Sequence record: NZ_CP011653.1
From: a plasmid
Length of the DNA: 16,257 nt
Strand: one strand, 5' to 3'
In this document: positions 1-16,257 of the stretch, piece after piece
How positions within the stretch are numbered: position 1 is the first letter of the stretch
How the letters are laid out: each line of letters opens with the position of its first letter
Program-made: the position numbers and the translations under genes
Notes under the pieces: generated by a model
The model's input: the letters and a program-made list of their open reading frames with translations, nothing else
What the model was told of the DNA's origin: nothing
Database searches by the model: none

Positions 1-11
1 AGAGAAGATTT

Positions 12-368
12 TTAGATTTTATATAAAATAGCAATATTATCATTTGTCAGAAGATCGGACAGAGCCATACATTCAAGAACCACAATACCCGTCCCTGCCA
101 ACAAACTGGCATCAGATATCTTATCGAAGCTGATAATCATCATTGGCTTGCGTTGTGTTAAATCAAAGATTACTAATGGTAGTATTACACTGTTAATTGA
201 TTCAAATTCTTTAAAGAAAGCATCAGAGCCATACTCACTGGCAGGAAAAAGAATTTCACTCAATCTGATCCCATAAAAAACATGATAGTTTTCTTTGAGG
301 TTTTCCTTTAAAATATTAATAGCTTTTGCGTATTTATCATCAATAAACTCTTTTACATCAAACTTCAT
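12..368 (-). CDS. Hypothetical protein, 118 aa from the ATG at 366-368. The ORF track extends it to a TTG at 405-407.
   Basis: Long open frame in AT-rich DNA. A strong SD (GGAGG, minus strand at 373-377) lies 5 nt upstream of the ATG. I recognise no known domain. A perfect 16-bp palindrome sits just upstream. Confidence 0.5.
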   Translation of the reverse strand: MKFDVKEFIDDKYAKAINILKENLKENYHVFYGIRLSEILFPASEYGSDAFFKEFESINSVILPLVIFDLTQRKPMMIISFDKISDASLLAGTGIVVLECMALSDLLTNDNIAILYKI

Positions 369-413
369 AAATCCTCCAACAAGAACCGACTGTAGGTCAC
401 CGGGCAAACGAGT

Positions 414-429
414 AAAATGCTAGCATTTT
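414..429. promoter_or_regulatory. Perfect 16-bp palindrome AAAATGCTAGCATTTT. It lies between the bis-like gene end and the start of the 118-aa gene. It is a candidate operator, or a weak terminator for the pir-bis operon.
   Basis: Read directly from the sequence. The dyad is centred on GCTAGC, about 40 bp upstream of the SD of the downstream minus-strand gene. Confidence 0.35.
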
Positions 430-541
430 GCGGCGTTTGCCCTATCCTGCATCGCATTGAAAAGAACTCACATCGCGCACTATGCTAAACCGATGGTATA
501 AGGCAAACATGCACAGTGCAAGCAGGCAGCTTGCGACTGGT

Positions 542-985
542 TCACCGCGACTCATCATCAGGTGTCTCCGTGCTTGCTTCTTTCGCATCAGGAACCAGGA
601 GACGATACCACGGCATTTTTTTGTTTATCATCTCCATTAGGGGAGTGGCAAACAAACTCAATCCCCACAGGCTTACGATAACAGGGATCGTGAAATTATG
701 TGGCGTCCAGAACTGGCGCTCAAGGTGAAACCATGTGACGACACAAACCATCCCGCCAATCCAGAAAATAGCCTTACTGAAAGCCCCCAATACAGCCAGG
801 GTAATAACAGAAACTACATGCAGTGCGCCAGCTGTGACAAGGCGAAGATAAAAACAGAACCATTTAACGTGTCGGATAAACGGATTGCCCGTTTTTACTC
901 TACGTTGCTTTTTACGTTCCCTGTCAATTTCATGCCTTAGTTTGTCTCGCTCTGCGCCCAGCGGGAAATCATAGATTTTAGCCAT
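542..985 (-). CDS. bis: Small integral membrane protein, 147 aa. Position and size fit R6K Bis (beta-origin initiation protein), immediately downstream of pir.
   Basis: Starts 8 bp after the pir stop. A GAGGTGA SD overlaps the pir stop codon, indicating translational coupling. Two hydrophobic segments are present. The N-terminal motif MAKIYDFP recalls small proteins encoded beside rep genes on enterobacterial plasmids. The bis assignment is by synteny with R6K, not by alignment. Confidence 0.55.
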   Translation of the reverse strand: MAKIYDFPLGAERDKLRHEIDRERKKQRRVKTGNPFIRHVKWFCFYLRLVTAGALHVVSVITLAVLGAFSKAIFWIGGMVCVVTWFHLERQFWTPHNFTIPVIVSLWGLSLFATPLMEMINKKMPWYRLLVPDAKEASTETPDDESR

Positions 986-993
986 AACTCACC

Positions 994-1908
994 TCATTTC
1001 TTTTTGGGTGGTACTTTTCTATCAAACTCCTCAAGAAAAGCAGAATCATCATCGTCAAATAACTCTATAGGAAAATCAGAGCCTGATTCGGCAAATTTAT
1101 CTTCATCTATAGCGTATTCAAATCGTAACTTACTAACTTTCCTTCCTTCTTTTTCATCGACAACGCAAGACAGGAAAGTCACCTCAGTTTTTTCTTTTAT
1201 TTCTTTGATGGCCTTATTTATTACCTCTCGCTTGAATATAGGGTACTCTGGATACTTATATATAATATCTCCATTATCATCAATATTGTAAGCAATAAGT
1301 TCATCCTTCAACTCTTCCAGAGATAGGCTAAATGAATTTTTCCCTTTAAACGTTGAGTAATTCTTCCTAATTAACTGATACAATGACCACGAATACTCCC
1401 CTCTCAATTTTAATGAGGACGCAATTAGTTGTGTTGTGAATTTATTTTCCGCCCCAATTAATCTTGATATATAAGGCGTGATAGTGTATCCAAATCTTAG
1501 AATTACAAATCCCTCATTTTGGTTATATGCACAATAATCAGTAATCGATAAGTCAAGGCGGTCGATGTTTTTTGAATTTGGAAGACCAAGTTCCTTTGCT
1601 AATTCCTTCATATCATTCCCCGTAAGGGAAAGTTTACTGACATTTAACAATTCAGCACCTTCCTTGACTTGCTTATAAGCAACAGAAGGATGTATTCCGG
1701 CTATCTTTGCGTACATATCAGCCCGAATTTTAAAGGTCTGCCCCATTCTCATTTCTTTTTTTGGATCAACATAAACCAAGGCCAGACACAGAACCCTTTT
1801 GGCTGCCAATGGAAGTTGAGCCAGAGTTTTATTTATTTCGTTCCTGTGACGAATCTTCGTTTTTTCAGTTACATTTTTCATAACTTTTATTCTCATAAAA
1901 CCTCTCAC
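994..1908 (-). CDS. pir: Rep_3-family iteron-binding replication initiator, pi (pir)-like as in R6K/IncX.
   Basis: The protein (…KTKIRHRNEINKTLAQLPLAAKRV… and a C-terminal VPPKKK) closely resembles R6K pi. Iterons lie adjacent. The true start is probably an internal ATG at 1896 or 1881. An AGAGG motif precedes the ATG at 1896. Confidence 0.88.
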   Translation of the reverse strand: MRGFMRIKVMKNVTEKTKIRHRNEINKTLAQLPLAAKRVLCLALVYVDPKKEMRMGQTFKIRADMYAKIAGIHPSVAYKQVKEGAELLNVSKLSLTGNDMKELAKELGLPNSKNIDRLDLSITDYCAYNQNEGFVILRFGYTITPYISRLIGAENKFTTQLIASSLKLRGEYSWSLYQLIRKNYSTFKGKNSFSLSLEELKDELIAYNIDDNGDIIYKYPEYPIFKREVINKAIKEIKEKTEVTFLSCVVDEKEGRKVSKLRFEYAIDEDKFAESGSDFPIELFDDDDSAFLEEFDRKVPPKKK

Positions 1909-1940
1909 TAAAGAGTAGCCACATTAACATGATGAAGTTA

Positions 1941-1982
1941 TTTTTTCCATCATGTTTATTCGCATTTATCATCATGTTTGTC
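1941..1982. repeat. Two 22-bp iteron copies next to the pir start, probably an autoregulatory operator.
   Basis: The sequences ttttccatcatgtttattcg and cgcatttatcatcatgtttgtc match the iteron consensus cgcattt-N-catcatgttt-NNt. Confidence 0.6.
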
Positions 1983-2105
1983 CGCTTAGCGACTCAGCTA
2001 AACCAGACAGGCTCCAGCCAATGTGCTCATAAAACGCACGCCTTGATGACTTCACATACAAAGATCTTCAGATATGAAGCTTTTAAATCAAGCTGTTAAT
2101 AGCGT

Positions 2106-2237
2106 CGCATTTTCCATCATGTTTCGTCGCATTTTCCATCATGGTAAAACGCATTTTTCATCATGCCTCGTCGCATTTCCCATCATGTTTAATCGCATTT
2201 ATCATCATGTTTCGTCGCATCCACCATCATGTTTAGC
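2106..2237. repeat. Six tandem 22-bp iterons forming the core of the origin, gamma-ori-like.
   Basis: Units start at 2106, 2128, 2150, 2172, 2194 and 2216 with exact 22-bp spacing. Each matches cgcattt(t/a/c)(c/t)catcatg(ttt)…. Confidence 0.85.
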
Positions 2238-2342
2238 TTATTTTTCCTATATATATCAGATAATTAAAAACCTCTAATTCTTTAAGATCTTTAAGAAAAG
2301 AAAATATATATAAGGCTTTTAATGCACAGTACCTGTGGATAA
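2238..2342. promoter_or_regulatory. AT-rich DNA-unwinding stretch with a consensus DnaA box (TGTGGATAA at 2334-2342) flanking the iterons.
   Basis: The block is more than 80% A+T and runs ttatttttcctatatatatcagataattaaaaa…. The 9-mer is TTATCCACA on the complementary strand. Confidence 0.65.
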
Positions 2343-2439
2343 CTCAGCATAAACCCAGAGGATAGATCCTTCTAACCTTCGGAAGTTGGAGCAAAACATA
2401 AGGTGTTCATATTTTAGCCATTGAGTGTACGTGCTCTCT

Positions 2440-2560
2440 GTCAGAGCAGCAGATATTCCGCTTCCTCGCTTTGGCTGTTCGTTCCTCGTCGCTATGCTCC
2501 TGCGGTACGCCTCAGCCAAAGACTGCGGCGAGCGGTGCCGTCTCTCGATCACCTAGGTCT
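2440..2560. other. GC-rich island with motifs identical to the ColE1/pBR322 primosome assembly site region. Candidate ssi/PAS element.
   Basis: ccgcttcctcgct (2458-2470) and ctgcggcgagcggt (2523-2536) are exact matches to the pBR322 segment just past ori (…CCGCTTCCTCGCT…GGCTGCGGCGAGCGGTATCAGC…). The local GC content contrasts with AT-rich surroundings. Confidence 0.35.
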
Positions 2561-2675
2561 GAGAAAAGGTGAGAAGAATTTTAACTCAAAAAAAAGAGAT
2601 GTTTTAAACTGTTAAATCAAAGAGATACATTGAGCAAAGATAACTTAAAAGTAAGATGATTTTTAAGTTATGCGT

Positions 2676-2712
2676 AAAAAACGGGAAAGGATCGTGGAGT
2701 GATCCTTTTTAG
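2676..2712. terminator. Bidirectional rho-independent terminator.
   Basis: Stem AAAGGATC (2686-2693) pairs with GATCCTTT (2701-2708) around a 7-nt loop. T5 follows on the plus strand and A6 at 2676-2681 gives a T-run on the minus strand. Confidence 0.55.
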
Positions 2713-2760
2713 ATCCAGCACTAAAACGCACTCAGAAGCCCTCAGAGGCGTTTTAAGTGA

Positions 2761-2797
2761 GTTTACCCCGACGAGGGTTCAGCAGAACGGGGTAAAC
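2761..2797. repeat. Perfect 10-bp inverted repeat GTTTACCCCG / CGGGGTAAAC with a 17-nt spacer. It is the core of a longer imperfect palindrome of roughly 2738-2822.
   Basis: Read directly. The flanks continue to match at about 18 of 21 positions (cggggtaaacNcNcttaNaac on both arms). Confidence 0.5.
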
Positions 2798-3019
2798 CCG
2801 CTTAGAACAGCATACAGCTCGTTTAACGTAACAAGCTGGAAATTGACCAGGAGTGAACTCCGCTTACATGGGATGCCAGCAAAATTTTACGACCGGCAAT
2901 GATGGCCAGTTACTTTTTGCTGGCTATTGTCGCCCAGCAGCTGGCGGCCTGATTGTTTTTTTGCTGTCAGAGTTCGTCAGGCATCAATTGGTTTCAGCTA
3001 CTCGCCACGTAATGCGCTG

Positions 3020-3277
3020 CTAACGCACCTCATAACGCGCAGATACAGCGCCCCGCGCCAGTGCTTCACACTGCCCCGGCGTACCGTTCGCCAGCTCACG
3101 CGCTAACTGCGACAGGCTAAACGCCGTCTGATAGTCAGAAATTGGCTTAGCAGGGGAGAGGAGGTTATTGCTCATATCCAGGCTTGTTGGTTCGCCAATA
3201 CTGGCGAACGTCCCCGGCGCGATGTAACGAGTATGCAAAATGTGACACAGTTCGCGCCTCTTTGAAACACGGTTCAA
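3020..3277 (-). CDS. Hypothetical 85-aa ORF in a GC-rich patch. The start is a TTG. Coding status is doubtful.
   Basis: The ORF is in the supplied track only. I recognise no homology. The partition-type operator boxes lie 20-40 bp upstream of its start on the minus strand. Confidence 0.2.
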   Translation of the reverse strand: MNRVSKRRELCHILHTRYIAPGTFASIGEPTSLDMSNNLLSPAKPISDYQTAFSLSQLARELANGTPGQCEALARGAVSARYEVR

Positions 3278-3280
3278 CAG

Positions 3281-4674
<1,394 letters not shown>

Positions 4675-4682
4675 CCACTACA

Positions 4683-4885
4683 GGAACAACGTGATTGAAT
4701 GCGATCATGGCAAACTGAAACGGATAATCGGCGCCACGCTGGGATTTAAATCCATGAAGACGGCTTACGCCACCATCAAAGGTATTGAGGTGATGCGTGC
4801 ACTACGCAAAGGCCAGGCCTCAGCATTTTATTATGGTGATCCCCTGGGCGAAATGCGCCTGGTAAGCAGAGTTTTTGAAATGTAA
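4683..4885 (+). pseudogene. tnp26: C-terminal 67 codons of IS26 transposase Tnp26, 5'-truncated.
   Basis: The translation …NNVIECDHGKLKRIIGATLGFKSMKTAYATIKGIEVMRALRKGQASAFYYGDPLGEMRLVSRVFEM is identical to the C-terminus of the full copies. Confidence 0.9.
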
Positions 4886-4937
4886 GGCCTTTGAATAAGA
4901 CAAAAGGCTGCCTCATCGCTAACTTTGCAACAGTGCC
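4683..4937 (+). mobile_element. Truncated IS26, a 255-bp 3' remnant that retains the right inverted repeat.
   Basis: Identical to the equivalent segments of the two complete copies, 8336-8590 and 12901-13155. It ends with TTTGCAACAGTGCC at 4924-4937. Its 5' boundary is exactly the right end of the IS911-like element. Confidence 0.9.
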
Positions 4938-5259
4938 TAAAATAAGCCTTATATCCAAGCATAAAACAAGGTTGTCTAGACTTCTTTTAACAGTAAAGTT
5001 ATCATAAAACTGAATTTTATTTTTTAGGTAAGTTTATGCATTCTATCCGCATTCGTTAAGACACAACTATTTGCATAGTGACACTATTTTATAATGGTGG
5101 GCTTTTGTTGTGTCTTTAAGAATATATGCGGATATATAAAGTAAAAGTATGCTTAATTTATAAGTATGCTTTTAGTGCATAGTTTCCAGTTATAACTTAA
5201 TTGACTAGCTATTTGTCCACCCTGTGGATGAATAGCTTTTTTTTTGGGAGGACACTGTG

Positions 5260-5283
5260 ATGCTAGCTTTTGTTTTCACCTAA
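5260..5283 (+). CDS. Putative 7-codon leader peptide MLAFVFT upstream of msr(E). Candidate for macrolide-dependent translational attenuation.
   Basis: GGGAGG SD at 5246-5251 with 8-nt spacing to the ATG. The stop lies immediately before a hairpin that occludes the msr(E) ribosome-binding site. Confidence 0.45.
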   Translation: MLAFVFT

Positions 5284-5285
5284 AT

Positions 5286-5325
5286 CCTGTTTGCTGCATA
5301 AAAAATTTCAAGAGCTAAACAGGAG
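5286..5325 (+). promoter_or_regulatory. Attenuator hairpin that sequesters the msr(E) Shine-Dalgarno sequence.
   Basis: CCTGTTTGC (5286-5294) pairs with GCtAAACAGG (5314-5323) with one bulged t. The 3' arm overlaps the GGAG SD at 5322-5325. Confidence 0.45.
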
Positions 5326-5334
5326 TAAATAAAA

Positions 5335-6810
5335 ATGAGTTTAATTATTAAAGCGAGAAACATACGCTTGGATTATGCTGGGCGTGATGTTTTGGATATT
5401 GATGAATTGGAAATTCACTCTTATGACCGTATTGGTCTTGTGGGTGATAACGGAGCAGGAAAGAGTAGTTTACTCAAAGTACTTAATGGCGAAATTGTTT
5501 TAGCCGAAGCGACATTACAGCGTTTTGGTGATTTTGCACATATCAGCCAACTGGGCGGAATCGAAATAGAAACGGTCGAAGACCGGGCAATGTTATCTCG
5601 CCTTGGTGTTTCCAATGTACAAAACGACACAATGAGTGGCGGAGAGGAAACTCGTGCAAAAATTGCTGCCGCATTTTCCCAACAAGTACATGGCATTCTA
5701 GCGGATGAACCAACCAGCCACCTTGATCTCAATGGAATAGATCTACTTATTGGTCAACTTAAAGCATTTGATGGAGCATTACTTGTTATCAGTCATGACC
5801 GATATTTTCTTGATATGGTTGTAGACAAGATATGGGAGTTAAAAGACGGTAAAATTACGGAATATTGGGGTGGTTACTCGGATTACTTGCGTCAAAAAGA
5901 AGAAGAGCGACAACACCAAGCCGTAGAATATGAGCTGATGATGAAGGAACGGGAGCGATTAGAATCTGCTGTGCAAGAAAAACGCCAGCAAGCTAATCGA
6001 TTAGACAATAAGAAAAAAGGAGAAAAATCCAAAAACTCTACCGAAAGTGCTGGACGACTTGGGCATGCAAAAATGACTGGCACCAAGCAAAGAAAACTGT
6101 ATCAGGCAGCTAAGAGTATGGAAAAGCGTTTGGCTGCATTAGAAGATATTCAAGCACCAGAGCATTTGCGTTCTATTCGTTTTCGTCAAAGTTCAGCCCT
6201 AGAACTGCACAATAAGTTCCCGATTACGGCAGATGGTCTGAGCTTAAAATTTGGTAGCCGTACTATCTTTGATGACGCTAACTTTATAATACCGCTTGGC
6301 GCTAAAGTCGCTATAACTGGATCGAATGGAACAGGGAAAACGTCCTTGTTAAAAATGATATCAGAACGTGCTGATGGATTAACCATATCTCCAAAAGCTG
6401 AAATTGGCTACTTTACACAAACAGGATATAAATTTAACACGCATAAATCTGTGCTCTCCTTTATGCAGGAAGAGTGCGAGTACACAGTTGCGGAAATTCG
6501 TGCAGTATTGGCTTCAATGGGGATCGGAGCGAATGATATTCAAAAAAACTTATCCGACTTATCGGGAGGTGAAATCATCAAACTGCTTTTATCCAAAATG
6601 CTTTTAGGAAAATATAATATTTTGCTTATGGATGAACCAGGAAACTATCTTGACCTAAAAAGTATTGCCGCATTAGAAACAATGATGAAGTCCTATGCAG
6701 GAACTATTATCTTCGTATCTCATGACAAGCAATTGGTCGATAATATTGCTGACATTATCTACGAGATCAAAGACCACAAAATCATCAAGACTTTTGAGAG
6801 AGATTGTTAA
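5335..6810 (+). CDS. msr(E): ABC-F ribosomal protection protein Msr(E), giving macrolide and streptogramin B resistance.
   Basis: 491 aa with two ABC ATPase cassettes (Walker A GDNGAGKS and GSNGTGKT, signature LSGGE). It lies immediately upstream of mph(E), as in the known msr(E)-mph(E) operon. The sequence matches my recollection of Msr(E). Confidence 0.93.
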
Positions 6811-6865
6811 TGATAGCCAATCTAATCCGAACATTAATTATTGAACTCTTTAAAGGAAATTAAAA

Positions 6866-7750
6866 ATGACAATTCAAGATATTCAATCACTTGCTGAAGC
6901 ACACGGCTTGTTGCTTACGGACAAAATGAATTTCAATGAAATGGGCATTGATTTTAAGGTCGTTTTTGCTCTTGATACAAAGGGGCAACAATGGTTGCTG
7001 CGTATTCCTCGTCGTGATGGCATGAGGGAACAAATCAAGAAAGAAAAACGCATTTTAGAATTGGTAAAAAAACATCTTTCTGTAGAGGTTCCTGATTGGA
7101 GAATTTCATCTACAGAATTAGTGGCTTATCCCATACTTAAAGATAATCCTGTTTTAAATTTGGATGCTGAAACCTATGAAATAATTTGGAATATGGACAA
7201 AGATAGCCCGAAATACATAACATCTTTGGCAAAAACCTTATTTGAAATCCATAGTATTCCTGAAAAAGAAGTTCGGGAAAATGATTTGAAAATTATGAAA
7301 CCTTCAGATTTAAGACCTGAAATAGCAAACAATTTGCAGTTAGTAAAATCTGAAATTGGTATAAGTGAGCAATTGGAAACCCGCTACAGAAAATGGTTGG
7401 ATAATGATGTTCTATGGGCAGATTTCACCCAATTTATACATGGCGATTTATATGCTGGGCATGTACTAGCTTCAAAGGATGGAGCTGTTTCAGGCGTTAT
7501 TGATTGGTCAACAGCCCATATAGATGACCCAGCGATTGATTTTGCTGGGCATGTAACTTTGTTTGGAGAAGAAAGCCTCAAAACTCTAATCATCGAGTAT
7601 GAAAAACTAGGGGGTAAAGTTTGGAATAAACTATATGAACAGACTTTAGAAAGAGCAGCGGCCTCTCCTTTGATGTATGGTTTATTTGCCTTAGAAACTC
7701 AAAATGAAAGCCTTATCGTTGGAGCAAAAGCTCAGTTGGGAGTTATATAA
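6866..7750 (+). CDS. mph(E): Macrolide 2'-phosphotransferase Mph(E).
   Basis: 294 aa with an APH-like kinase fold and motifs HGDLYAGH and VIDWSTAHIDDPAIDFAG. A 55-bp gap separates it from msr(E), and its SD is AAGGAAA. Confidence 0.92.
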   Translation: MTIQDIQSLAEAHGLLLTDKMNFNEMGIDFKVVFALDTKGQQWLLRIPRRDGMREQIKKEKRILELVKKHLSVEVPDWRISSTELVAYPILKDNPVLNLDAETYEIIWNMDKDSPKYITSLAKTLFEIHSIPEKEVRENDLKIMKPSDLRPEIANNLQLVKSEIGISEQLETRYRKWLDNDVLWADFTQFIHGDLYAGHVLASKDGAVSGVIDWSTAHIDDPAIDFAGHVTLFGEESLKTLIIEYEKLGGKVWNKLYEQTLERAAASPLMYGLFALETQNESLIVGAKAQLGVI

Positions 7751-7770
7751 TTTAAAAATATGATTGCTGA

Positions 7771-8590
7771 GGCACTGTTGCAAATAGTCGGTGGTGATAA
7801 ACTTATCATCCCCTTTTGCTAATGGAGCTGCACATGAACCCATTCAAAGGCCGGCATTTTCAGCGTGACATCATTCTGTGGGCCGTACGCTGGTACTGCA
7901 AATACGGCATCAGTTACCGTGAGCTGCAGGAGATGCTGGCTGAACGCGGAGTGAATGTCGATCACTCCACGATTTACCGCTGGGTTCAGCGTTATGCGCC
8001 TGAAATGGAAAAACGGCTGCGCTGGTACTGGCGTAACCCTTCCGATCTTTGCCCGTGGCACATGGATGAAACCTACGTGAAGGTCAATGGCCGCTGGGCG
8101 TATCTGTACCGGGCCGTCGACAGCCGGGGCCGCACTGTCGATTTTTATCTCTCCTCCCGTCGTAACAGCAAAGCTGCATACCGGTTTCTGGGTAAAATCC
8201 TCAACAACGTGAAGAAGTGGCAGATCCCGCGATTCATCAACACGGATAAAGCGCCCGCCTATGGTCGCGCGCTTGCTCTGCTCAAACGCGAAGGCCGGTG
8301 CCCGTCTGACGTTGAACACCGACAGATTAAGTACCGGAACAACGTGATTGAATGCGATCATGGCAAACTGAAACGGATAATCGGCGCCACGCTGGGATTT
8401 AAATCCATGAAGACGGCTTACGCCACCATCAAAGGTATTGAGGTGATGCGTGCACTACGCAAAGGCCAGGCCTCAGCATTTTATTATGGTGATCCCCTGG
8501 GCGAAATGCGCCTGGTAAGCAGAGTTTTTGAAATGTAAGGCCTTTGAATAAGACAAAAGGCTGCCTCATCGCTAACTTTGCAACAGTGCC
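7771..8590 (+). mobile_element. IS26, an IS6-family element of 820 bp. Complete copy 1.
   Basis: Left inverted repeat GGCACTGTTGCAAA at 7771-7784 and right inverted repeat TTTGCAACAGTGCC at 8577-8590. The flanking 8-mers attgctga and cctgcgtg do not match. There is one substitution relative to copy 2, gctAatgg versus gctGatgg near position 51. Confidence 0.95.
7834..8538 (+). CDS. tnp26: IS26 transposase Tnp26, 234 aa.
   Basis: The protein is MNPFKGRHFQRDIILWAVRWYCKYGISYRELQEMLAERG…VFEM. The ORF track begins 6 codons earlier at an in-frame ATG. Confidence 0.95.
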   Translation: MNPFKGRHFQRDIILWAVRWYCKYGISYRELQEMLAERGVNVDHSTIYRWVQRYAPEMEKRLRWYWRNPSDLCPWHMDETYVKVNGRWAYLYRAVDSRGRTVDFYLSSRRNSKAAYRFLGKILNNVKKWQIPRFINTDKAPAYGRALALLKREGRCPSDVEHRQIKYRNNVIECDHGKLKRIIGATLGFKSMKTAYATIKGIEVMRALRKGQASAFYYGDPLGEMRLVSRVFEM

Positions 8591-8895
8591 CCTGCGTGCG
8601 CTGCTGCCATGTCCACTACCTGACGCCGGTGATGGTGATGGCCTCGCCGGAGCGGGAATTTCTTAACCTCGACGAATTTAGACGATCGGCGGGCGAGGGG
8701 ATGTCGTGGCAAGGTCCGCCTTGCGCTGCTCCGCAAGGGCGACACCAGCGGGTTCGTCGGCGGCCACGCCTAGCGCGACCGCAACCAAGCGTCGAAAAAG
8801 TATACGCTCGTCACCCGCCGTCTCCTGTGCTGAGAGTCTCAGGCCGATCGGCCGGCAGGGCTCAATGTCAGCAAACGCGTGATGAGCGGTGGCCT

Positions 8896-9174
8896 TCAAC
8901 AGTGATAAGGCGGCACCAGAGAAAAATCACTCAGGGTCAATGCCAGCGCTTCGTTAATACAGATGTAGGTGTTCCACAGGGTAGCCAGCAGCATCCTGCG
9001 ATGCAGATCCGGAACATAATGGTGCAGGGCGCTGACTTCCGGTGCCAGCAGATATTTTGGCAGTTTGCCTTGGATCAGAGCCATCTGACGCAGGGCTAGT
9101 GCAGCCGGATAGTCAATAGCTACCGGCAGCGGTGCGGACTGTTGTAACTCAGAATAAGAAATGAGGCCGCTCAT
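8896..9174 (-). CDS. Hypothetical 92-aa ORF in the pSC101-type DNA downstream of tetA. Possibly a fragment of a tyrosine-recombinase-like gene.
   Basis: The sequence is co-linear with the pSC101-derived part of pBR322/pACYC184, which carries the ORF starting MSGLISYSELQQS…. The segment …LLATLWNTYICINEALALTLSDFSL resembles the start of an integrase catalytic domain. The protein is far too short to be functional. Confidence 0.3.
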   Translation of the reverse strand: MSGLISYSELQQSAPLPVAIDYPAALALRQMALIQGKLPKYLLAPEVSALHHYVPDLHRRMLLATLWNTYICINEALALTLSDFSLVPPYHC

Positions 9175-9623
9175 GGCGTTGACTCTCAGTCATAGTATCG
9201 TGGTATCACCGGTTGGTTCCACTCTCTGTTGCGGGCAACTTCAGCAGCACGTAGGGGACTTCCGCGTTTCCAGACTTTACGAAACACGGAAACCGAAGAC
9301 CATTCATGTTGTTGCTCAGGTCGCAGACGTTTTGCAGCAGCAGTCGCTTCACGTTCGCTCGCGTATCGGTGATTCATTCTGCTAACCAGTAAGGCAACCC
9401 CGCCAGCCTAGCCGGGTCCTCAACGACAGGAGCACGATCATGCGCACCCGTGGCCAGGACCCAACGCTGCCCGAGATGCGCCGCGTGCGGCTGCTGGAGA
9501 TGGCGGACGCGATGGATATGTTCTGCCAAGGGTTGGTTTGCGCATTCACAGTTCTCCGCAAGAATTGATTGGCTCCAATTCTTGGAGTGGTGAATCCGTT
9601 AGCGAGGTGCCGCCGGCTTCCAT

Positions 9624-10814
9624 TCAGGTCGAGGTGGCCCGGCTCCATGCACCGCGACGCAGCGCCGGCAGGCAGAGCAAGTAGAGGGCAGCGCCTGCAA
9701 TCCATGCCCACCCGTTCCACGTTGTTATAGAAGCCGCATAGATCGCCGTGAAGAGGAGGGGTCCGACGATCGAGGTCAGGCTGGTGAGCGCCGCCAGTGA
9801 GCCTTGCAGCTGCCCCTGACGTTCCTCATCCACCTGCCTGGACAACATTGCTTGCAGCGCCGGCATTCCGATGCCACCCGAAGCAAGCAGGACCATGATC
9901 GGGAACGCCATCCATCCCCGTGTCGCGAAGGCAAGCAGGATGTAGCCTGTGCCGTCGGCAATCATTCCGAGCATGAGTGCCCGCCTTTCGCCGAGCCGGG
10001 CGGCTACAGGGCCGGTGATCATTGCCTGGGCGAGTGAATGCAGAATGCCAAATGCGGCAAGCGAAATGCCGATCGTGGTCGCGTCCCAGTGAAAGCGATC
10101 CTCGCCGAAAATGACCCAAAGCGCGGCCGGCACCTGTCCGACAAGTTGCATGATGAAGAAGACCGCCATCAGGGCGGCGACGACGGTCATGCCCCGGGCC
10201 CACCGGAACGAAGCGAGCGGGTTGAGAGCCTCCCGGCGTAACGGCCGGCGTTCGCCTTTGTGCGACTCCGGCAAAAGGAAACAGCCCGTCAGGAAATTGA
10301 GGCCGTTCAAGGCTGCCGCGGCGAAGAACGGAGCGTGGGGGGAGAAACCGCCCATCAGCCCACCGAGCACAGGTCCCGCGACCATCCCGAACCCGAAACA
10401 GGCGCTCATGAAGCCGAAGTGCCGCGCGCGCTCATCGCCATCAGTGATATCGGCAATATAAGCGCCGGCTACCGCCCCAGTCGCCCCGGTGATGCCGGCC
10501 ACGATCCGCCCGATATAGAGAACCCAAAGGAAAGGCGCCGTCGCCATGATGGCGTAGTCGACAGCAGCGCCGGCCAGCGAGACGAGCAAGACCGGCCGCC
10601 GCCCGAAACGATCCGACAGCGCGCCCAGCACAGGTGCGCAGGCAAATTGCATCAACGCATACAGCGCCAGCAGAATGCCATAGTGGGCGGTGACGTCGTT
10701 CGAGTGAACCAGATCGCGCAGGAGGCCCGGCAGCACCGGCATAATCAGGCCGATGCCGACAGCATCCAGGGTGACGGTGCCGAGGATGACGATGAGCGCA
10801 TTGTTAGATTTCAT
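9624..10814 (-). CDS. tetA: Tetracycline efflux MFS transporter TetA, 396 aa. It is a mosaic with a tet(C) 5' end (about 57 nt) and 3' end (about 35 nt) and a tet(A)/Tn1721-type core.
   Basis: N-terminus MKSNNALIVILGTVTLDAV and C-terminus RRGAWSRATST are as in pBR322 TetA(C). The interior …LIMPVLPGLLRDLVHSNDVTAHYGILLALYALMQFACAPV… matches class A TetA. At the nucleotide level the 5' end is identical to pBR322 through …CCTGGATGCTGT and then diverges. The 3' end is identical from GCGTCGCGGTGCATGGAGCCGGGCCACCTCGACCTGA. Confidence 0.9.
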   Translation of the reverse strand: MKSNNALIVILGTVTLDAVGIGLIMPVLPGLLRDLVHSNDVTAHYGILLALYALMQFACAPVLGALSDRFGRRPVLLVSLAGAAVDYAIMATAPFLWVLYIGRIVAGITGATGAVAGAYIADITDGDERARHFGFMSACFGFGMVAGPVLGGLMGGFSPHAPFFAAAALNGLNFLTGCFLLPESHKGERRPLRREALNPLASFRWARGMTVVAALMAVFFIMQLVGQVPAALWVIFGEDRFHWDATTIGISLAAFGILHSLAQAMITGPVAARLGERRALMLGMIADGTGYILLAFATRGWMAFPIMVLLASGGIGMPALQAMLSRQVDEERQGQLQGSLAALTSLTSIVGPLLFTAIYAASITTWNGWAWIAGAALYLLCLPALRRGAWSRATST

Positions 10815-10906
10815 ACACGGTGCCTGACTGCGTTAGCAATTTAACTGTGATAAACTACCGCATTAAAGCTTATCGATGATAAGCTGTCAAACATGAGAAT
10901 TCGCGA
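10815..10906. promoter_or_regulatory. Divergent tetA/tetR promoter-operator region of class C. It is identical to the first 90 bp of pBR322, including the EcoRI, ClaI and HindIII sites.
   Basis: The minus strand reads GAATTCTCATGTTTGACAGCTTATCATCGATAAGCTTTAATGCGGTAGTTTATCACAGTTAAATTGC. It carries TTGACA (-35), TTTAAT (-10) and the inverted repeat GCTTATC-gat-GATAAGC (10868-10884). EcoRI is at 10896-10901. Confidence 0.85.
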
Positions 10907-11566
10907 ATGAACAAGCTCCAACGCGAGGCCGTGATCCGAACCGCGCTCGAACTGCTTAACGACGTGGGCATGGAAGGTCTAACGACGCGCCGACTGGCTG
11001 AGCGCCTCGGGGTGCAACAGCCAGCGCTCTACTGGCATTTCAAGAACAAGCGTGCGTTGCTCGACGCACTTGCCGAAGCCATGCTGACGATAAATCACAC
11101 GCATTCGACGCCAAGGGATGACGACGACTGGCGTTCGTTCCTGAAGGGCAATGCATGCAGTTTTCGACGGGCGTTGCTCGCTTATCGCGATGGCGCGCGT
11201 ATTCATGCCGGGACGCGGCCAGCCGCGCCGCAGATGGAAAAAGCCGACGCGCAGCTTCGCTTCCTTTGCGATGCTGGCTTTTCGGCAGGTGACGCGACCT
11301 ATGCGTTGATGGCAATCAGCTACTTCACCGTCGGCGCTGTTCTTGAGCAGCAAGCTAGCGAGGCAGACGCCGAGGAGCGGGGCGAAGATCAGTTGACCAC
11401 CTCAGCGTCTACGATGCCGGCGCGCCTACAGAGCGCGATGAAAATCGTCTACGAAGGCGGTCCGGACGCGGCATTCGAGCGAGGCCTGGCTCTCATCATC
11501 GGCGGTCTTGAAAAAATGAGGCTCACTACGAACGACATTGAGGTGCTGAAGAATGTTGACGAATGA
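10907..11566 (+). CDS. tetR: TetR-family repressor of the tet determinant, class C type.
   Basis: 219 aa with an N-terminal HTH (…LTTRRLAERLGVQQPALYWHFKNKRALLDAL…). It is divergent from tetA and continuous with pSC101-type sequence beyond the EcoRI site. It is only about 70% similar to TetR(A). Confidence 0.88.
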   Translation: MNKLQREAVIRTALELLNDVGMEGLTTRRLAERLGVQQPALYWHFKNKRALLDALAEAMLTINHTHSTPRDDDDWRSFLKGNACSFRRALLAYRDGARIHAGTRPAAPQMEKADAQLRFLCDAGFSAGDATYALMAISYFTVGAVLEQQASEADAEERGEDQLTTSASTMPARLQSAMKIVYEGGPDAAFERGLALIIGGLEKMRLTTNDIEVLKNVDE

Positions 11567-11867
11567 CAGGGGGCGGCAGGTGCGGAGGGCGCGGTTGCTT
11601 CGTCATATGAAGCAAAGTCACCTAGCTGAATTAATGGGTGTGGATCAGGCAACCGTGTCGCGCTGGGAGCGGGGCACCCTTGCATTGTCGGATGGGAGGT
11701 GGTCAGCGGTTCTTCAATTGCTTACCGGGCCTTCCGATTCATCGTACGACGCTGCGCTGAAGCGTCTGGTGCAATCCTCCGCCCACAAAGTCCATCTGGT
11801 AGCGACCGGACACATTGTTTGCTCGCGGCATCTCCGGCCAGGCAAAGGGAATTGCGGATTGACCTAG
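11553..11867 (+). CDS. Hypothetical XRE-family HTH protein, 104 aa.
   Basis: HTH signature …SHLAELMGVDQATVSRWERG…. It overlaps the tetR stop by 14 nt. Function unknown. Confidence 0.4.
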   Translation: MLTNDRGRQVRRARLLRHMKQSHLAELMGVDQATVSRWERGTLALSDGRWSAVLQLLTGPSDSSYDAALKRLVQSSAHKVHLVATGHIVCSRHLRPGKGNCGLT

Positions 11868-12335
11868 CCGAACTCCTTGGTAAATCGCTGCGTGTTTATG
11901 CGTCCCCGAGATAGTTGCGGCCGACTCTGCGCTTAATGGGCTCGGTTGGCATGAGGGGCGGCTGGGGTCACTCGAGGTGGATACCGGCCCGAACTGGAGC
12001 GAGGAACTTCCATACTGCCAAGGCGAATGCTGTGGGAGCGCATCATGCTCGCTGATGGTAGCCCGGCACTACTTGTTACCACCACAGCTTAATGCGAAGG
12101 GTGCTCCTGTTCTTGTGCATATTTTATGCGCTGCTGATTGTGCATCGAACTGATAACCTCAACGGGTCTGCTTTGTAGTTCACCACACCCCTGACGCGCG
12201 CGTGCCGGATAAGCAGAACTATGGTGCCGATGGATGTCAGGAACACTCGGCCTGGTTCGTAACTAGGTCGTCCTGCGCGATCCTGCGGCTAGGGCCGGAA
12301 TCGTGCTCGCCAGTCAGGCGCTGATGAAGCCTATG

Positions 12336-13155
12336 GGCACTGTTGCAAATAGTCGGTGGTGATAAACTTATCATCCCCTTTTGCTGATGGAGCTGCACAT
12401 GAACCCATTCAAAGGCCGGCATTTTCAGCGTGACATCATTCTGTGGGCCGTACGCTGGTACTGCAAATACGGCATCAGTTACCGTGAGCTGCAGGAGATG
12501 CTGGCTGAACGCGGAGTGAATGTCGATCACTCCACGATTTACCGCTGGGTTCAGCGTTATGCGCCTGAAATGGAAAAACGGCTGCGCTGGTACTGGCGTA
12601 ACCCTTCCGATCTTTGCCCGTGGCACATGGATGAAACCTACGTGAAGGTCAATGGCCGCTGGGCGTATCTGTACCGGGCCGTCGACAGCCGGGGCCGCAC
12701 TGTCGATTTTTATCTCTCCTCCCGTCGTAACAGCAAAGCTGCATACCGGTTTCTGGGTAAAATCCTCAACAACGTGAAGAAGTGGCAGATCCCGCGATTC
12801 ATCAACACGGATAAAGCGCCCGCCTATGGTCGCGCGCTTGCTCTGCTCAAACGCGAAGGCCGGTGCCCGTCTGACGTTGAACACCGACAGATTAAGTACC
12901 GGAACAACGTGATTGAATGCGATCATGGCAAACTGAAACGGATAATCGGCGCCACGCTGGGATTTAAATCCATGAAGACGGCTTACGCCACCATCAAAGG
13001 TATTGAGGTGATGCGTGCACTACGCAAAGGCCAGGCCTCAGCATTTTATTATGGTGATCCCCTGGGCGAAATGCGCCTGGTAAGCAGAGTTTTTGAAATG
13101 TAAGGCCTTTGAATAAGACAAAAGGCTGCCTCATCGCTAACTTTGCAACAGTGCC
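12336..13155 (+). mobile_element. IS26, complete copy 2, in the same orientation as copy 1.
   Basis: Left inverted repeat at 12336-12349 and right inverted repeat at 13142-13155. The flanking 8-mers agcctatg and caaaaatt do not match, so there is no target site duplication. Confidence 0.95.
12399..13103 (+). CDS. tnp26: IS26 transposase Tnp26, 234 aa.
   Basis: The protein is identical to the copy 1 transposase. Confidence 0.95.
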   Translation: MNPFKGRHFQRDIILWAVRWYCKYGISYRELQEMLAERGVNVDHSTIYRWVQRYAPEMEKRLRWYWRNPSDLCPWHMDETYVKVNGRWAYLYRAVDSRGRTVDFYLSSRRNSKAAYRFLGKILNNVKKWQIPRFINTDKAPAYGRALALLKREGRCPSDVEHRQIKYRNNVIECDHGKLKRIIGATLGFKSMKTAYATIKGIEVMRALRKGQASAFYYGDPLGEMRLVSRVFEM

Positions 13156-13245
13156 CAAAAATTTTCGATATCCAAACTGACCCCTATTGAACAATCACAC
13201 AAGCCAACCAGCTAGGACGGGTAGACATTTTCTTGTGTGTTGTAA

Positions 13246-13911
13246 CTACTTACTCAAAGCACGTTTATCTTCCCTCGATTTTACAGCACTACTAATTGTC
13301 CCTCGACTACAGGCCATAATTTTCTGAACCTGGCTCCAAGAACTACCGCTATCGAGCAACCGATTAATTGCATCGTATCGAGCCTGATTGACCTGACGCC
13401 CCTTATATTTTCCCTCCTTTTGAGCTTTATTAATCCCCTGCCTTTGGCGTTCCCGGCGTTGTTCATAATCACGACGAGCCACAGCAGCCAGCATATCAAG
13501 CAACATATCGTTGATTGCAGCAAACATGCGACTATCAAAATCATGGCTCGCTGAAGCAATCCAGGTTGTCGGTACGTTGATGGCCATCACTCGAATATCC
13601 TTCTGGCGAATCAACTTCTTCAGGCTGTTCCAGTCTTCACCAGTTAAGCGTGAAAGCCGATCAACATCTTCAATGAGGAGAATATCGTTCTGTCGGCAGT
13701 CGTTCAGCAGTCTGAATAATTCCGGTCGGTCGAGCCGCGAACCAGATTCATTCTCGATGTAGTAATTGCAGATGTTAAGGCCACGCTCATCAGCAAAGCT
13801 ATCGATCGCAGCGAGTGCGCGAGAAGCGTCTTGTTCAGATGTTGAGGCGCGTAAATAAGCCCGGACAAAGCTTTGCGGTACGGTATGAGTCACAATGTCG
13901 AACCAGTTCAA
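13246..13911 (-). CDS. Serine recombinase or resolvase, probably for plasmid multimer resolution.
   Basis: The N-terminal catalytic motif …VRAYLRASTSEQD… carries the nucleophilic Ser. The C-terminal HTH is …SWSQVQKIMACSRGTISSAV…. The track start is a TTG, and the real start is probably a few codons downstream. The gene is divergent from the par operon. Confidence 0.8.
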   Translation of the reverse strand: MNWFDIVTHTVPQSFVRAYLRASTSEQDASRALAAIDSFADERGLNICNYYIENESGSRLDRPELFRLLNDCRQNDILLIEDVDRLSRLTGEDWNSLKKLIRQKDIRVMAINVPTTWIASASHDFDSRMFAAINDMLLDMLAAVARRDYEQRRERQRQGINKAQKEGKYKGRQVNQARYDAINRLLDSGSSWSQVQKIMACSRGTISSAVKSREDKRALSK

Positions 13912-14073
13912 TTTAGGTTATTAAAGCATAACCATATAGTACCTGTTTCGCATGGTATTTTAAAGGCATACTCAAACCGAACCAAAGAAATGATTCATTA
14001 TGTGACCACGTCACCTACAGTTACATCAGAAAGACGGTGTAAATCAAACGTAAAGCCATAATGAGCTTTACCA

Positions 14074-14225
14074 TGTAAAGCACACATAAAGACACACTTA
14101 TCTTTATACTCTATTTACATCGTAAAACATAAAGAGTATAAAGACACTATAAAGACGCCTATATCTTTATAAGTTAAAGACACCGTAAAGACATGAAAAG
14201 CTTTACATCGTAAATACGAGGATGC
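14074..14225. promoter_or_regulatory. Centromere- or operator-like repeat array upstream of parA. It holds about 8 direct and 2 inverted TAAAGAC(A/G)C boxes, flanked by two copies of the palindrome TTTACatcGTAAA.
   Basis: Boxes lie at 14076, 14087, 14130, 14139, 14150, 14175 and 14186. Inverted copies are at 14101-14108 and 14165-14172. TTTACATCGTAAA occurs at 14114-14126 and 14203-14215. Confidence 0.7.
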
Positions 14226-14229
14226 GGAA

Positions 14230-14892
14230 ATGGGAAAAATTTTACTGGTGGTTTCAGATAAGGGCGGGGTAGGGAAAAGCACCTACTCAGCTAACACAGC
14301 ATCTATGCTGGCAAACAGAGAAAAATCGGTAATCATCCTTAAAACCGATAAGAACAATGACCTTATCAGCTGGAATGAAAAACGCAGGGAGAATAGCCTC
14401 CCAACAGTACCAGTCTACGAGGCATACGGTAATGTAAGCAAAGAGATTAACCGCCTGAGCAAGCTGTGCGATGTTCTGATCGTTGACTGCCCCGGACATG
14501 ACAGCCTTGAGTTCCGTAGCGCACTGACTGTGTCAGATATCATGATAACTCTGGTTAAAGCGTCATCTGACTTTGAAAGTGAAACACTGACGAGCGTAAC
14601 CGAGAAAGTCCGCATGGCTCAGAAATCAAACGCAGCCCTGCAACCCTGGGTATTACTTACCAGAATAAACCCAAGCAAGCCACGCCACAGAAAAGCCGCT
14701 ATTGAGCTGGATAAATTATTACGCTCAGACGACGTCTGGATACAGCCACTAAAAAACCGCATGTCAGAATTGGATGTGTTTGAAAGCGCCTGCAATGAAG
14801 GGGCAGGGGTACATGATGTAAGCCGCGCCTCCAGTCTGACAACAGCAAAAGCACAGATAGAATTAGTCGCCCAGGAAATAGGGATAATCTAA
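14230..14892 (+). CDS. parA: Small ParA-family (type Ib, ParF-like) partition ATPase.
   Basis: Deviant Walker A motif KGGVGKST at the N-terminus, about 220 aa. SD GAGGA lies 7 nt upstream. It is followed by a small RHH protein gene. Confidence 0.85.
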   Translation: MGKILLVVSDKGGVGKSTYSANTASMLANREKSVIILKTDKNNDLISWNEKRRENSLPTVPVYEAYGNVSKEINRLSKLCDVLIVDCPGHDSLEFRSALTVSDIMITLVKASSDFESETLTSVTEKVRMAQKSNAALQPWVLLTRINPSKPRHRKAAIELDKLLRSDDVWIQPLKNRMSELDVFESACNEGAGVHDVSRASSLTTAKAQIELVAQEIGII

Positions 14893-14925
14893 ATATTTCA
14901 ATCGAATACATAGAAATTTACATTG

Positions 14926-14976
14926 TAAAGACAACATAAAGACACTATAGTATTTACACTTAGATAGTGTCTTTAA
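14926..14976. promoter_or_regulatory. Operator between parA and parG. It has direct TAAAGAC boxes and an inverted repeat AAAGACACTAT…ATAGTGTCTTT.
   Basis: Arms at 14938-14948 and 14964-14974. They lie 13-25 bp upstream of the parG-like start. Confidence 0.55.
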
Positions 14977-14988
14977 TGAGGATTTTGT

Positions 14989-15270
14989 ATGGTTTTAAAA
15001 TTGAAAACGCCAACCGTTCCGGCGACAGAAGAACAGGCAACAAACGCAGAAACAGCACGCTTTATCTCTGGAGCCACAAGGAAGCCAACACCAGGTAAAG
15101 CGAAGCTGGTTAATTTCCGGCTTTCTGAAGCCTTTGACGATATCCTAGAGGCTGAGGCGATCAGAACAGGACAGAGCAGGACAACCGTTCTAAAGGCAGC
15201 GCTGGCCGCATTTGATAATCTGGACGAAAACCAGAAAAACCACTGGTTACTGGAATCAGCAAAATTCTAA
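14989..15270 (+). CDS. parG: ParG-like ribbon-helix-helix centromere-binding protein and repressor.
   Basis: 93 aa. The C-terminal RHH segment is …KLVNFRLSEAFDDILEAEAIRTGQSRTTVLKAALAAF…. It lies immediately after the parA-like gene, with a GAGGA SD. Confidence 0.7.
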   Translation: MVLKLKTPTVPATEEQATNAETARFISGATRKPTPGKAKLVNFRLSEAFDDILEAEAIRTGQSRTTVLKAALAAFDNLDENQKNHWLLESAKF

Positions 15271-15294
15271 CCATAGAAGCATGGATGATAATCT

Positions 15295-16257
15295 ATGAGA
15301 TATTTAACCGAATTAATCTGTCAACTCTACAGGTTGACAGATCACCATAAGCTGACCGCTGCAACGTTTAAAAATCTTGCTGATATTAAGTTAGTTGAAC
15401 CTACAGCGGATGCAGACACCATATTGCAGCTTGAAAATATATTTAGCGAATACTCACTGAGATATATTGACAGGGATCTGGCTGAGATTCTGAGTAACAT
15501 AATAACTACAGATAAAAAACACTCTCTGGATTTCGATTTTAACAAATTACAGTCTCTGACTGCCTCGAAAAGTTTCGGTTGTGGATGGAACAAGGTAATA
15601 AATGGTAGTTGGTTCAAAAACCTTTACTCATGGGGGGAGGGGATGTATCCCGCCAAAAACCTGAAAGCTGAAAACATTTCAGACTGGGAGGATAATATAT
15701 GGCACATTGAGCATGAAGGTTTCAACCCTCGCGATTCTATCAATGTTACATATTACTCCTGGCTTGACCGCTATGTAGCTTCAAACAGTGGTGGTTCACA
15801 TCATGCAGCAATGGTTGTATATCAATCTGTCAGAGACAAATTAGAGTATAAACGAGAAGCGGTTATTGAACAACTGAGCATAAATTCAAACACCGTTGAA
15901 ATACTTGACCAGAACTACTATTCATTCATATTCCAGATAAAACGCCCTAGTAATAAGACAGAAATTTATACATCAGAATATGAATTTATAGATGCTTTAA
16001 AAGAGTTTGTAGAAAACAGATATACTATACTTAATCCTGTCAATTACGTTTCCAGTATTAAATTAGTTTTTATTCCAAAACATGCACTAAAAACAAATGA
16101 CAAAACTTTCCGTAACTGGTTCTATTCTGCAATTAGTTGCGGGAAAATAATATCATTCCCCGATTATCTGAAAAATCCAGCGCATTACCATACACACCAT
16201 TACTCACATGAACTAAACTCGATAACACTTGGTGACCCTAGCAGAAAGTATAAACTG
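15295..16257 (+). CDS. Hypothetical protein, N-terminal 321 codons. The ORF is still open at the window end and is absent from the supplied ORF track.
   Basis: Frame 1 from ATG 15295 to 16257 contains no stop codon in DNA of about 33% GC. It begins MRYLTELICQLYRLTDHHKLTAATFKNLADIKLVEP… and continues …DWEDNIWHIEHEGFNPRDSINVTYYSWLDRYVASNSGGSHHAAMVVYQSV…. The start lies 24 bp after the parG stop. I recognise no motif. Confidence 0.6.
   Translation, partial: MRYLTELICQLYRLTDHHKLTAATFKNLADIKLVEPTADADTILQLENIFSEYSLRYIDRDLAEILSNIITTDKKHSLDFDFNKLQSLTASKSFGCGWNKVINGSWFKNLYSWGEGMYPAKNLKAENISDWEDNIWHIEHEGFNPRDSINVTYYSWLDRYVASNSGGSHHAAMVVYQSVRDKLEYKREAVIEQLSINSNTVEILDQNYYSFIFQIKRPSNKTEIYTSEYEFIDALKEFVENRYTILNPVNYVSSIKLVFIPKHALKTNDKTFRNWFYSAISCGKIISFPDYLKNPAHYHTHHYSHELNSITLGDPSRKYKL

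Follow-up and report, generated by a model that had tools for sequence, protein, structure and literature searches.

Organization of the tet Locus and Mosaic Structure of tetA

The DNA analysed here is a 16,257-nucleotide (nt) stretch of plasmid record NZ_CP011653.1, referred to below as the window, and it carries a tetracycline (Tc) resistance module consisting of an efflux gene, tetA, and a divergently oriented repressor gene, tetR(C). tetA (9624–10814, minus strand) is an intact open reading frame (ORF) of 396 amino acids (aa) with an ATG start, for which we propose the name tet(C/A/C), following the Stanton/Levy/Roberts nomenclature of mosaic tet genes. It is separated from tetR(C) (10907–11566, plus strand; 219 aa) by a 92-base-pair (bp) divergent promoter-operator region (10815–10906), and the whole module lies between two copies of IS26 in direct orientation (7771–8590 and 12336–13155, both on the plus strand). 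A sequence-only reading of this DNA had proposed that tetA combines tet(C) termini with a tet(A) core inside an otherwise pSC101-type tet(C) module. Comparison with reference plasmids confirms that tetA is a clean three-part natural mosaic, in which a class A core is set within a class C gene.

We aligned the window with pSC101 (NC_002056), a second pSC101-type plasmid and the canonical tetR(A)-tet(A)-pecM region of pTE_C_3. In this four-way alignment, the first 56 nt of the gene (10759–10814), comprising the ATG start, codons 1–18 and two bases of codon 19, are identical to pSC101 throughout (56/56) and match tet(A) at 39/56 positions. Gene nt 57–1153 (9662–10758) form the class A core, which is identical to tet(A) of pTE_C_3 at 1097/1097 positions and to pSC101 at 825/1097 (75%). 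The remaining nt 1154–1191 (9624–9661), which specify the AWSRATST tail of Tet(C) and include the stop codon, are again those of pSC101 (38/38, versus 19/38 for tet(A)). All three segments read on the minus strand, as does the gene.

The switches between the segments are abrupt and fall within short tracts common to both parents. At the 5′ end, the crossover lies in a 5-bp tract, GCTGT (10759–10763, minus strand), with C-specific sequence up to 10764 and A-specific sequence from 10758, and the identity between the parents falls from about 0.8 to 0.5–0.6 just upstream of it. The 3′ crossover lies in the 10-bp tract TGCGTCGCGG (9652–9661, minus strand), with A-specific sequence up to 9662 and C-specific sequence from 9651, and this tract is the final run of identity before homology between tet(A) and tet(C) stops. 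The two parental genes are 74% identical, and the longest run of identity that they share within the coding sequence is 20 bp. No 6-bp restriction site is common to both parents at either junction; a restriction-site origin of the junctions was considered and rejected, as the only 6-bp sites in the vicinity (NaeI/NgoMIV, HaeII) belong to A-specific sequence and are not common to the two parents. Outside the core, the window is identical to pSC101 over 942/942 positions on the 5′ side (11700–10759) and over 712/712 positions on the 3′ side (9661–8950).

Sites that distinguish the two parents give the same partition without exception. Counted as C-like, A-like and neither, they number 183/0/0 in tetR, 42/0/0 in the intergenic region, 17/0/0 in the first 56 nt of tetA, 0/272/0 in the core and 19/0/0 in the tail. 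All 36 C-like sites among the 308 informative sites of the coding sequence are located at its two ends (P ~3e-46 under random order). Mosaic tet genes are recognised by contiguous segments nearly identical to different parents and separated by abrupt switches, and here each of three segments is 100% identical to its parent. An ancestral lineage as the source of the mosaic was considered and rejected, since every segment is identical to a modern parent.

The structure proposed from the letters is thus borne out in all its main features. Besides the class C termini and class A core (17 C, 272 A and 19 C informative sites), the class C nature of the promoter-operator, tetR(C) and the DNA downstream of tetA is upheld, all of them being 100% identical to pSC101, and both crossovers lie within the coding sequence, the mapped tracts being close to the predicted ranges of 10750–10760 and 9655–9670. 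The reading would have fallen had the gene been uniformly of one class, and in the alignment it is not. The lengths given for the pSC101-identical ends need correction: both ends are class C, but the 5′ one measures 56 nt, not 57, nt 57 being the first A-specific base, and the 3′ one 38 nt including the stop codon, not 35. The interior is GC-rich, as had been stated, although the effect is slight (0.638 versus 0.617 for the replaced tet(C) span).

The Hybrid Protein and Its Class Assignment

Protein identity of the hybrid is 96.7% to Tet(A) and 81.3% to Tet(C), compared with 78.2% between the two references. Residues 19–388 are reference-type Tet(A), and the differences from Tet(A) consist of S3, N5, A6, G12 and T15 together with the 8-residue Tet(C) tail. 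Membership of the family is supported by the Tet(A)/Tet(B)/Tet(C) efflux model NF012174 (622.4 bits over residues 4–384; cutoff 475). At the level of class, the protein scores above the cutoff of the NCBIfam Tet(A) model NF012193 (874.7 bits; cutoff 840) and below that of the NCBIfam Tet(C) model NF012191 (748.3 bits; cutoff 850). The locus is not class A along the whole gene with a cognate tetR(A) and class A operators, as the termini of tetA, the operator and tetR are all class C. Compared with Tet(A) of Tn1721/RP1, with which it shares the core residues and a passing score against the Tet(A) model, the hybrid is shorter (396 versus 399 aa), starts with ATG instead of GTG, has neither tetR(A) nor class A operators, and is part of a pSC101-type module instead of Tn1721 with pecM.

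According to the class rule of Levy et al., which requires at least 80% amino-acid identity (as described in PMC5181394), the hybrid nominally belongs to Tet(A) and Tet(C) alike, the value of 81.3% for Tet(C) being owed to the class C termini; because the termini are class C, the rule is unable to separate the classes here. AMRFinderPlus labels the hybrid tet(A) at 98.22% and RGI labels it tet(A) at 96.72%, and the exact reference allele appears to be absent from the AMRFinderPlus and CARD catalogues used by PLSDB. A gene driven by a class C repressor and operator is therefore reported as plain tet(A), and a truncated relative next to blaVEB, described below, is reported by RGI as tet(C), so the suspicion that this gene could confuse typing schemes was justified. 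Since the protein exceeds the 80% threshold for both classes, class-specific polymerase chain reaction, probes and k-mer typing can give contradictory calls.

In TetA, the N-terminus and the C-terminal tail are both cytoplasmic. The core contains M55, V75, A84 and A201-S202-F203, which we take to be Tn1721-type residues of the kind tied by some studies to lower tigecycline susceptibility. The known resistance mechanism is unaltered by the mosaic; if the proposed origin and regulation are correct, the swapped termini and class C signals might measurably shift the expression level, the fitness cost or the response to glycylcyclines away from those of Tn1721 tet(A).

An ORF of 112 aa (9382–9720, minus strand), annotated as encoding a hypothetical protein, overlaps the 3′ end of tetA. 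It carries accession WP_071845138.1 in carriers of the hybrid and WP_002310911.1 in pure tet(C) modules, a difference due to the change that the class A patch makes in its C-terminal portion. This ORF probably does not represent a real gene.

Class C Repressor and Promoter-Operator

The tetR(C) segment, which is 100% identical to pSC101, is annotated as TetR(C) (WP_001038045.1) in both pTE_C_3 and pSC101, and its product scores 306 bits against the NCBIfam TetR model (cutoff 265). The intergenic region is likewise 100% identical to pSC101, and it contains the EcoRI-ClaI-HindIII landmark (10902–10866) to which the sequence-only reading had drawn attention, with EcoRI at 10902–10897, ClaI at 10877–10872 and HindIII at 10871–10866. 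A pBR322-type −35 element, TTGACA, is located at 10890–10885 and the −10 element, TTTAAT, at 10867–10862. A generic scan of 10780–10940 called neither a promoter nor a terminator; presumably the pBR322 −10 hexamer fails the rule of such a scanner. Because the scanner misses TTTAAT, the promoter assignment rests on identity to pSC101, and for both promoter and operator at 10815–10906 we assume that established knowledge of pBR322/pSC101 applies. An intact tetR(C) diverging from tetA across a class C promoter-operator is the arrangement of a tet(C)-type module, and its conservation suggests that the hybrid would be repressed by TetR(C) and induced by tetracycline.

The Recipient Is an IS26-Bounded tet(C) Unit

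The left IS26 (7771–8590) is 820 bp long, has terminal inverted repeats of 14 bp and encodes an intact Tnp26 of 234 aa. The right copy (12336–13155) also has an intact Tnp26 and is identical to the IS26 of pB12, pTE_C_3 and pB3. Between them lies a 3,745-bp translocatable unit (8591–12335), a tet(C) unit with a tet(A) patch. Aligned with the pure IS26-tet(C)-IS26 unit of pB3 ("Tn-tet"), this segment shows no gap over 3745/3745 columns and 271 mismatches, all within 9662–10758; the pSC101-type DNA downstream of tetA (8591–9623) contains none. The pB3 unit thus shares with the hybrid unit, as does pSC101/pBR322 tet(C), the tetR(C) gene, promoter-operator and tetA termini, and furthermore the downstream DNA, the IS26 borders and the 3,745-bp span. 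The hybrid differs from tet(C) by the 1,097-nt class A core, with 271–272 nucleotide and 74 amino-acid differences. Because all mismatches to pB3 are confined to the core, the recipient can be identified as an IS26-bounded tet(C) unit, in agreement with the earlier description of a pSC101-type tet(C) module between direct IS26 copies. The pure unit of equal span occurs in ~60 plasmid records, and the patched 3,745-bp segment occurs exactly in pB12, in pTE_C_3, in a 4.47-Mb contig (L010) and in one further fetched locus (L011).

A passenger bounded by directly oriented IS26 copies, with borders as in pB3, corresponds to a pseudo-compound transposon or translocatable unit. The copies are not flanked by matching 8-bp target-site duplications, the flanks being ATTGCTGA/CCTGCGTG at copy 2 and AGCCTATG/CAAAAATT at copy 3 of the array. 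For IS26, matching duplications are not expected in multi-copy arrays built by conservative or cointegrate routes.

One base sets the left IS26 apart. It has a non-coding A instead of G at IS26 position 51 (window 7821), which leaves the transposase unaltered and differs from the copy at 12336–13155 and from every IS26 of pB12, pTE_C_3, pB3 and the 4.47-Mb contig.

Related tet(A)/tet(C) Recombinants with a Common 3′ Junction

Two other contexts contain the 3′ junction as well. Four Edwardsiella IncQ2 (pRAS3-like) plasmids have an identical 3′ junction, a core matching that of the window at 1097/1097 positions and the same Tet(C) tail (NZ_CP084431.1, with its hybrid tetR at 5421–6056, and equivalents in NZ_CP084511, NZ_MF925338 and NZ_MG212499). 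Unlike in the window, the class A tract of these plasmids extends past the tetA start, covers class A operators and reaches into tetR, giving a hybrid TetR(A/C) that is class A from codon 1 to ~136 and class C from ~141 to the end, with a 16-bp identity tract between the two parts; NCBI names it just "TetR" (WP_047706566.1). The Edwardsiella form further differs in its pRAS3-like backbone and in having no IS26 unit. The second context comprises seven IncC/IncP plasmids in which a 1,108-bp tetA remnant adjoins blaVEB and matches window 9593–10700 with 1 mismatch. The remnant is cut at gene nt 115 and 31 bp beyond the stop codon, so that of the junctions it has only the 3′ one; it spans 3032–4139 in the pKAZ1 locus and 3501–4608 in two further loci (L008 and L009). 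RGI calls it tet(C) at 80.7%, and the depositors of pKAZ1 call it tet(A)′. The hybrid of the window is thus a member of a small family of recombinants between tet(A) and tet(C) with a common 3′ junction, and the event is not unique to this locus.

A common 3′ junction raises the question of order. It may have a single origin in a common ancestor of this hybrid, the Edwardsiella/pRAS3-type hybrid and the blaVEB-linked remnant; the allele of the window would then have regained its class C tetR, its operator and nt 1–56 of tetA through a second exchange, with a pure tet(C) unit as partner. Such stepwise descent would refine the proposal of a natural recombinant, not deny it, and we give it a little less than an even chance. 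It is suggested by the presence of an identical 3′ junction in three unrelated contexts (13 records), compared with 2 records for the 5′ junction, and by the near identity of the cores, with no difference in Edwardsiella and 1 in 1,108 positions in the blaVEB-linked remnant. However, the junction coincides with the final run of parental identity, and independent conversion tracts reaching the end of homology could recreate it; moreover, three homeologous junctions are needed, versus two for the direct route. The segments are 100% identical to their parents and leave no single-nucleotide polymorphisms by which to order events, so either common descent or repeated recreation may account for the 3′ junction.

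Both full-length recombinant forms pair an operator with the DNA-binding domain of its own repressor, C with C in the window and A with A in Edwardsiella. This pairing may reflect selection against mis-regulated TetA. The two matched forms provide a natural test of the constraint that arises from toxic, unregulated TetA expression.

A candidate for a second mosaic, p30148-2 of Salmonella Worthington (NZ_CP051355.1, 3521–7500), scored slightly above pure tet(C) and was rejected; it carries a pSC101-type tet(C) interrupted by extra sequence, of which RGI calls just 762 bp as tet(C).

Distribution of the Allele and Natural Origin

The same allele with both junctions is present in two exogenously captured environmental IncP-1β plasmids, pB12 (JX469826) and pTE_C_3 (NZ_MW574938), and the window represents a third context, as its match to these plasmids is limited to 4683–13155. 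A search of public plasmids for the junctions, as the sequence-only reading had advised, found the 5′ junction in 2/72,556 plasmid records and the 3′ junction in 13. The core by itself matches tet(A) at 99% identity or more in 4,099 plasmid records. The exact hybrid protein occurs on 114 public contigs with multispecies NCBI names, and both junctions are present at the nucleotide level in 8/8 loci that we fetched. Most of these loci are 2.7–3.8-kb contigs that appear to break at IS26; the 4.47-Mb contig, which is chromosome-sized, carries the same IS26-msr(E)-mph(E)-IS26-tet-IS26 array as pB12, pTE_C_3 and the window.

In pTE_C_3 the canonical tetR(A)-tet(A)-pecM region (NZ_MW574938.1, 42641–45488) lies ~9 kb from the hybrid in inverted orientation, with a core identical at 1097/1097 positions. 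Because this plasmid holds both canonical tet(A) and the hybrid, donor and product can share one replicon. The presence of a tet(A) gene beside a tet(C)-type module is also a setting that can mislead assemblers, and the mosaic could then be an assembly or sequencing chimera from samples containing both genes. This is hardly credible, because the parental genes share tracts of only 5 and 10 bp at the junctions and no run beyond 20 bp, which we judge too short for k-mer or overlap mis-joins. Furthermore, pB12 has no second tetA-like copy, and identical junctions recur in pB12, pTE_C_3, the window and 8/8 further loci, in records from different projects and probably from different sequencing technologies and years.

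The two tet pumps of pTE_C_3 have different repressors, and cross-talk between TetR(A) and TetR(C) on this one plasmid is possible.

The identity of the landmark and promoter to pBR322/pSC101 also brings to mind a laboratory construct or vector contamination, that is, a pBR322/pSC101 tet cassette with an engineered tet(A) core, and class A/C hybrid Tet proteins have been made in the laboratory, to judge from the title of Rubin and Levy (1990) cited in PMC5181394. The EcoRI-ClaI-HindIII landmark is, however, native to pSC101, and the window contains a full-length tetR(C) and 1 kb of downstream pSC101 DNA over exactly the span of the natural IS26-tet(C) unit. Neither junction falls at a 6-bp site common to the parents and both are near the ends of the gene, whereas the laboratory hybrids are said to be joined at the interdomain region. 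The allele is carried by conjugative plasmids captured from the environment, by assemblies of clinical type and by a chromosome-sized contig, with the protein on 114 contigs in all, and related recombinants are found in plasmids of fish pathogens. Together, these observations leave a vector origin of the junctions, which the sequence-only reading had named as grounds for giving up its proposal, very improbable.

Proposed Origin and Function of the Hybrid

We consider it very probable that the locus is a natural recombinant in which a tet(C) unit was patched by ~1.1 kb of tet(A), giving a Tet(A)-type pump under class C control. The recipient would be the widespread IS26-bounded pSC101-type tetR(C)-tetA(C) unit, and the donor a ubiquitous Tn1721-type tet(A), contributing a colinear tract of ~1.1 kb (gene nt 57–1153). 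The exchange, a homeologous double crossover or gene conversion, would have ended within the 5-bp and 10-bp identity tracts. In the product, the start codon (ATG), the ribosome-binding site, the promoter and the operators are those of class C, and TetR(C) is unaltered. The exchange may have come about by RecA-dependent recombination of homeologous sequences, patched by mismatch repair, or by template switching at microhomologies. The sequence predicts a tetracycline/H+ antiporter of the Tet(A) type whose expression, driven by the class C promoter, would be repressed by TetR(C) and switched on by tetracycline. The hybrid spreads within the IS26-msr(E)-mph(E)-IS26-tet-IS26 array, as seen in the IncP-1β plasmids, the IncX-like replicon of the window and the chromosome-sized contig. 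Recombinants that survive may be those that pair an operator with the DNA-binding domain of its own repressor.

Several observations weigh against this proposal or parts of it. The junction tracts measure just 5 and 10 bp and no identity run of the parents within the coding sequence exceeds 20 bp; efficient RecA-dependent exchange normally needs a longer substrate than 5–10 bp. The allele is rare: beyond the 2 plasmid records with the 5′ junction, the 5′-junction allele was found in 0/5,426 complete E. coli genomes, and an exact scan with the 5′-junction 40-mer found it in 0 GTDB species representatives and 0 JGI metagenome contigs. The case for selection on regulatory coherence draws on two recombinant forms. 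Finally, the link of the hybrid to a phenotype runs through pB12 and stems from a review table.

This link bears on whether the intact hybrid could give no or poor resistance and be a passenger in the IS26 array, a reading that agrees with the rarity of the allele and with the canonical tet(A) of pTE_C_3, which could explain the resistance of that plasmid. We nevertheless regard it as unlikely. pB12, in which the hybrid is the only predicted tet gene, is listed as Tc-resistant in a table of a review (PMC3590792), and because no other tet gene is present there, the hybrid probably works. Furthermore, the full-length ORF departs from functional Tet(A) at just 5 N-terminal residues and the tail, and tetracycline-resistance plasmids found in aquaculture pathogens carry the variant with the tail alone. 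According to the title of Rubin and Levy (1990), as cited in PMC5181394, resistance is conferred by hybrids between closely related Tet classes. A functional hybrid pump is thus the probable outcome of the proposed patching.

The laboratory Tet(A)/Tet(C) hybrids (Rubin and Levy, 1990) combine the same two classes as the mosaic. The mosaic differs from these constructs in being natural, with junctions at codon 19 and ~385–388, and in having both half-domains of class A. The engineered proteins are reportedly functional and joined at the central interdomain loop. Mosaics such as tet(O/W/O) and tet(O/32/O) are closer to the hybrid in layout, with a central segment of one class between termini of another, segments ~100% identical to their parents, a whole protein above the 80% threshold and mis-typing as one class (PMC5181394). 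The products of those genes are GTPases that protect the ribosome in Gram-positive and anaerobic bacteria, whereas the hybrid encodes an efflux pump of the major facilitator superfamily (MFS) with a divergent repressor gene. A 2016 review treats mosaic tet genes as a subgroup of the ribosomal-protection genes, and the literature that we searched, in which few subscription journals were covered, contained no description of this hybrid or of any efflux-gene mosaic; both fit the earlier remark that mosaic tet efflux genes are scarcely documented. We put forward only tentatively, and as a claim that is on balance doubtful, that the gene is the first recognised natural mosaic among efflux-type tet genes, belonging to a tet(A)/tet(C) recombinant family formed at microhomologies and possibly filtered by selection for an operator-repressor match. 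The mosaic idea, so far applied to ribosomal-protection genes, is here extended to MFS efflux determinants, with productive exchange across ~26% divergence at junctions of 5–10 bp.

Neighbouring Features of the Window

Within the tet unit, downstream of and slightly overlapping tetR(C), a small helix-turn-helix (HTH) ORF of the pSC101-type module (11553–11867, plus strand) gives a weak match to an MqsA-like HTH family, and its counterpart in seven fetched loci (L010–L016) carries Pfam HTH_3.

Beyond the IS26 array, the flanks of the window (1–4682 and 13156–16257) carry DDP3 (12–407) and a pir/RepM-like initiator (994–1908) on the left, and a serine resolvase (13246–13911) and ParA (14230–14892) on the right. 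This backbone matches 47–66-kb plasmids of Citrobacter, Klebsiella and Enterobacter at 99.6–99.9% and looks IncX-like; the combination of backbone and IS26 array is found in no PLSDB record.

The upstream part of the array (4683–7770, plus strand) consists of an IS26 remnant followed by msr(E) (5335–6810) and mph(E) (6866–7750), all on the plus strand. The remnant, the leftmost IS26, is a 255-bp right end (4683–4937) that abuts a truncated IS3-family transposase ORF (4048–4674), and the left border of the array here differs in this respect from that of pB12 and pTE_C_3, where the leftmost IS26 is complete.

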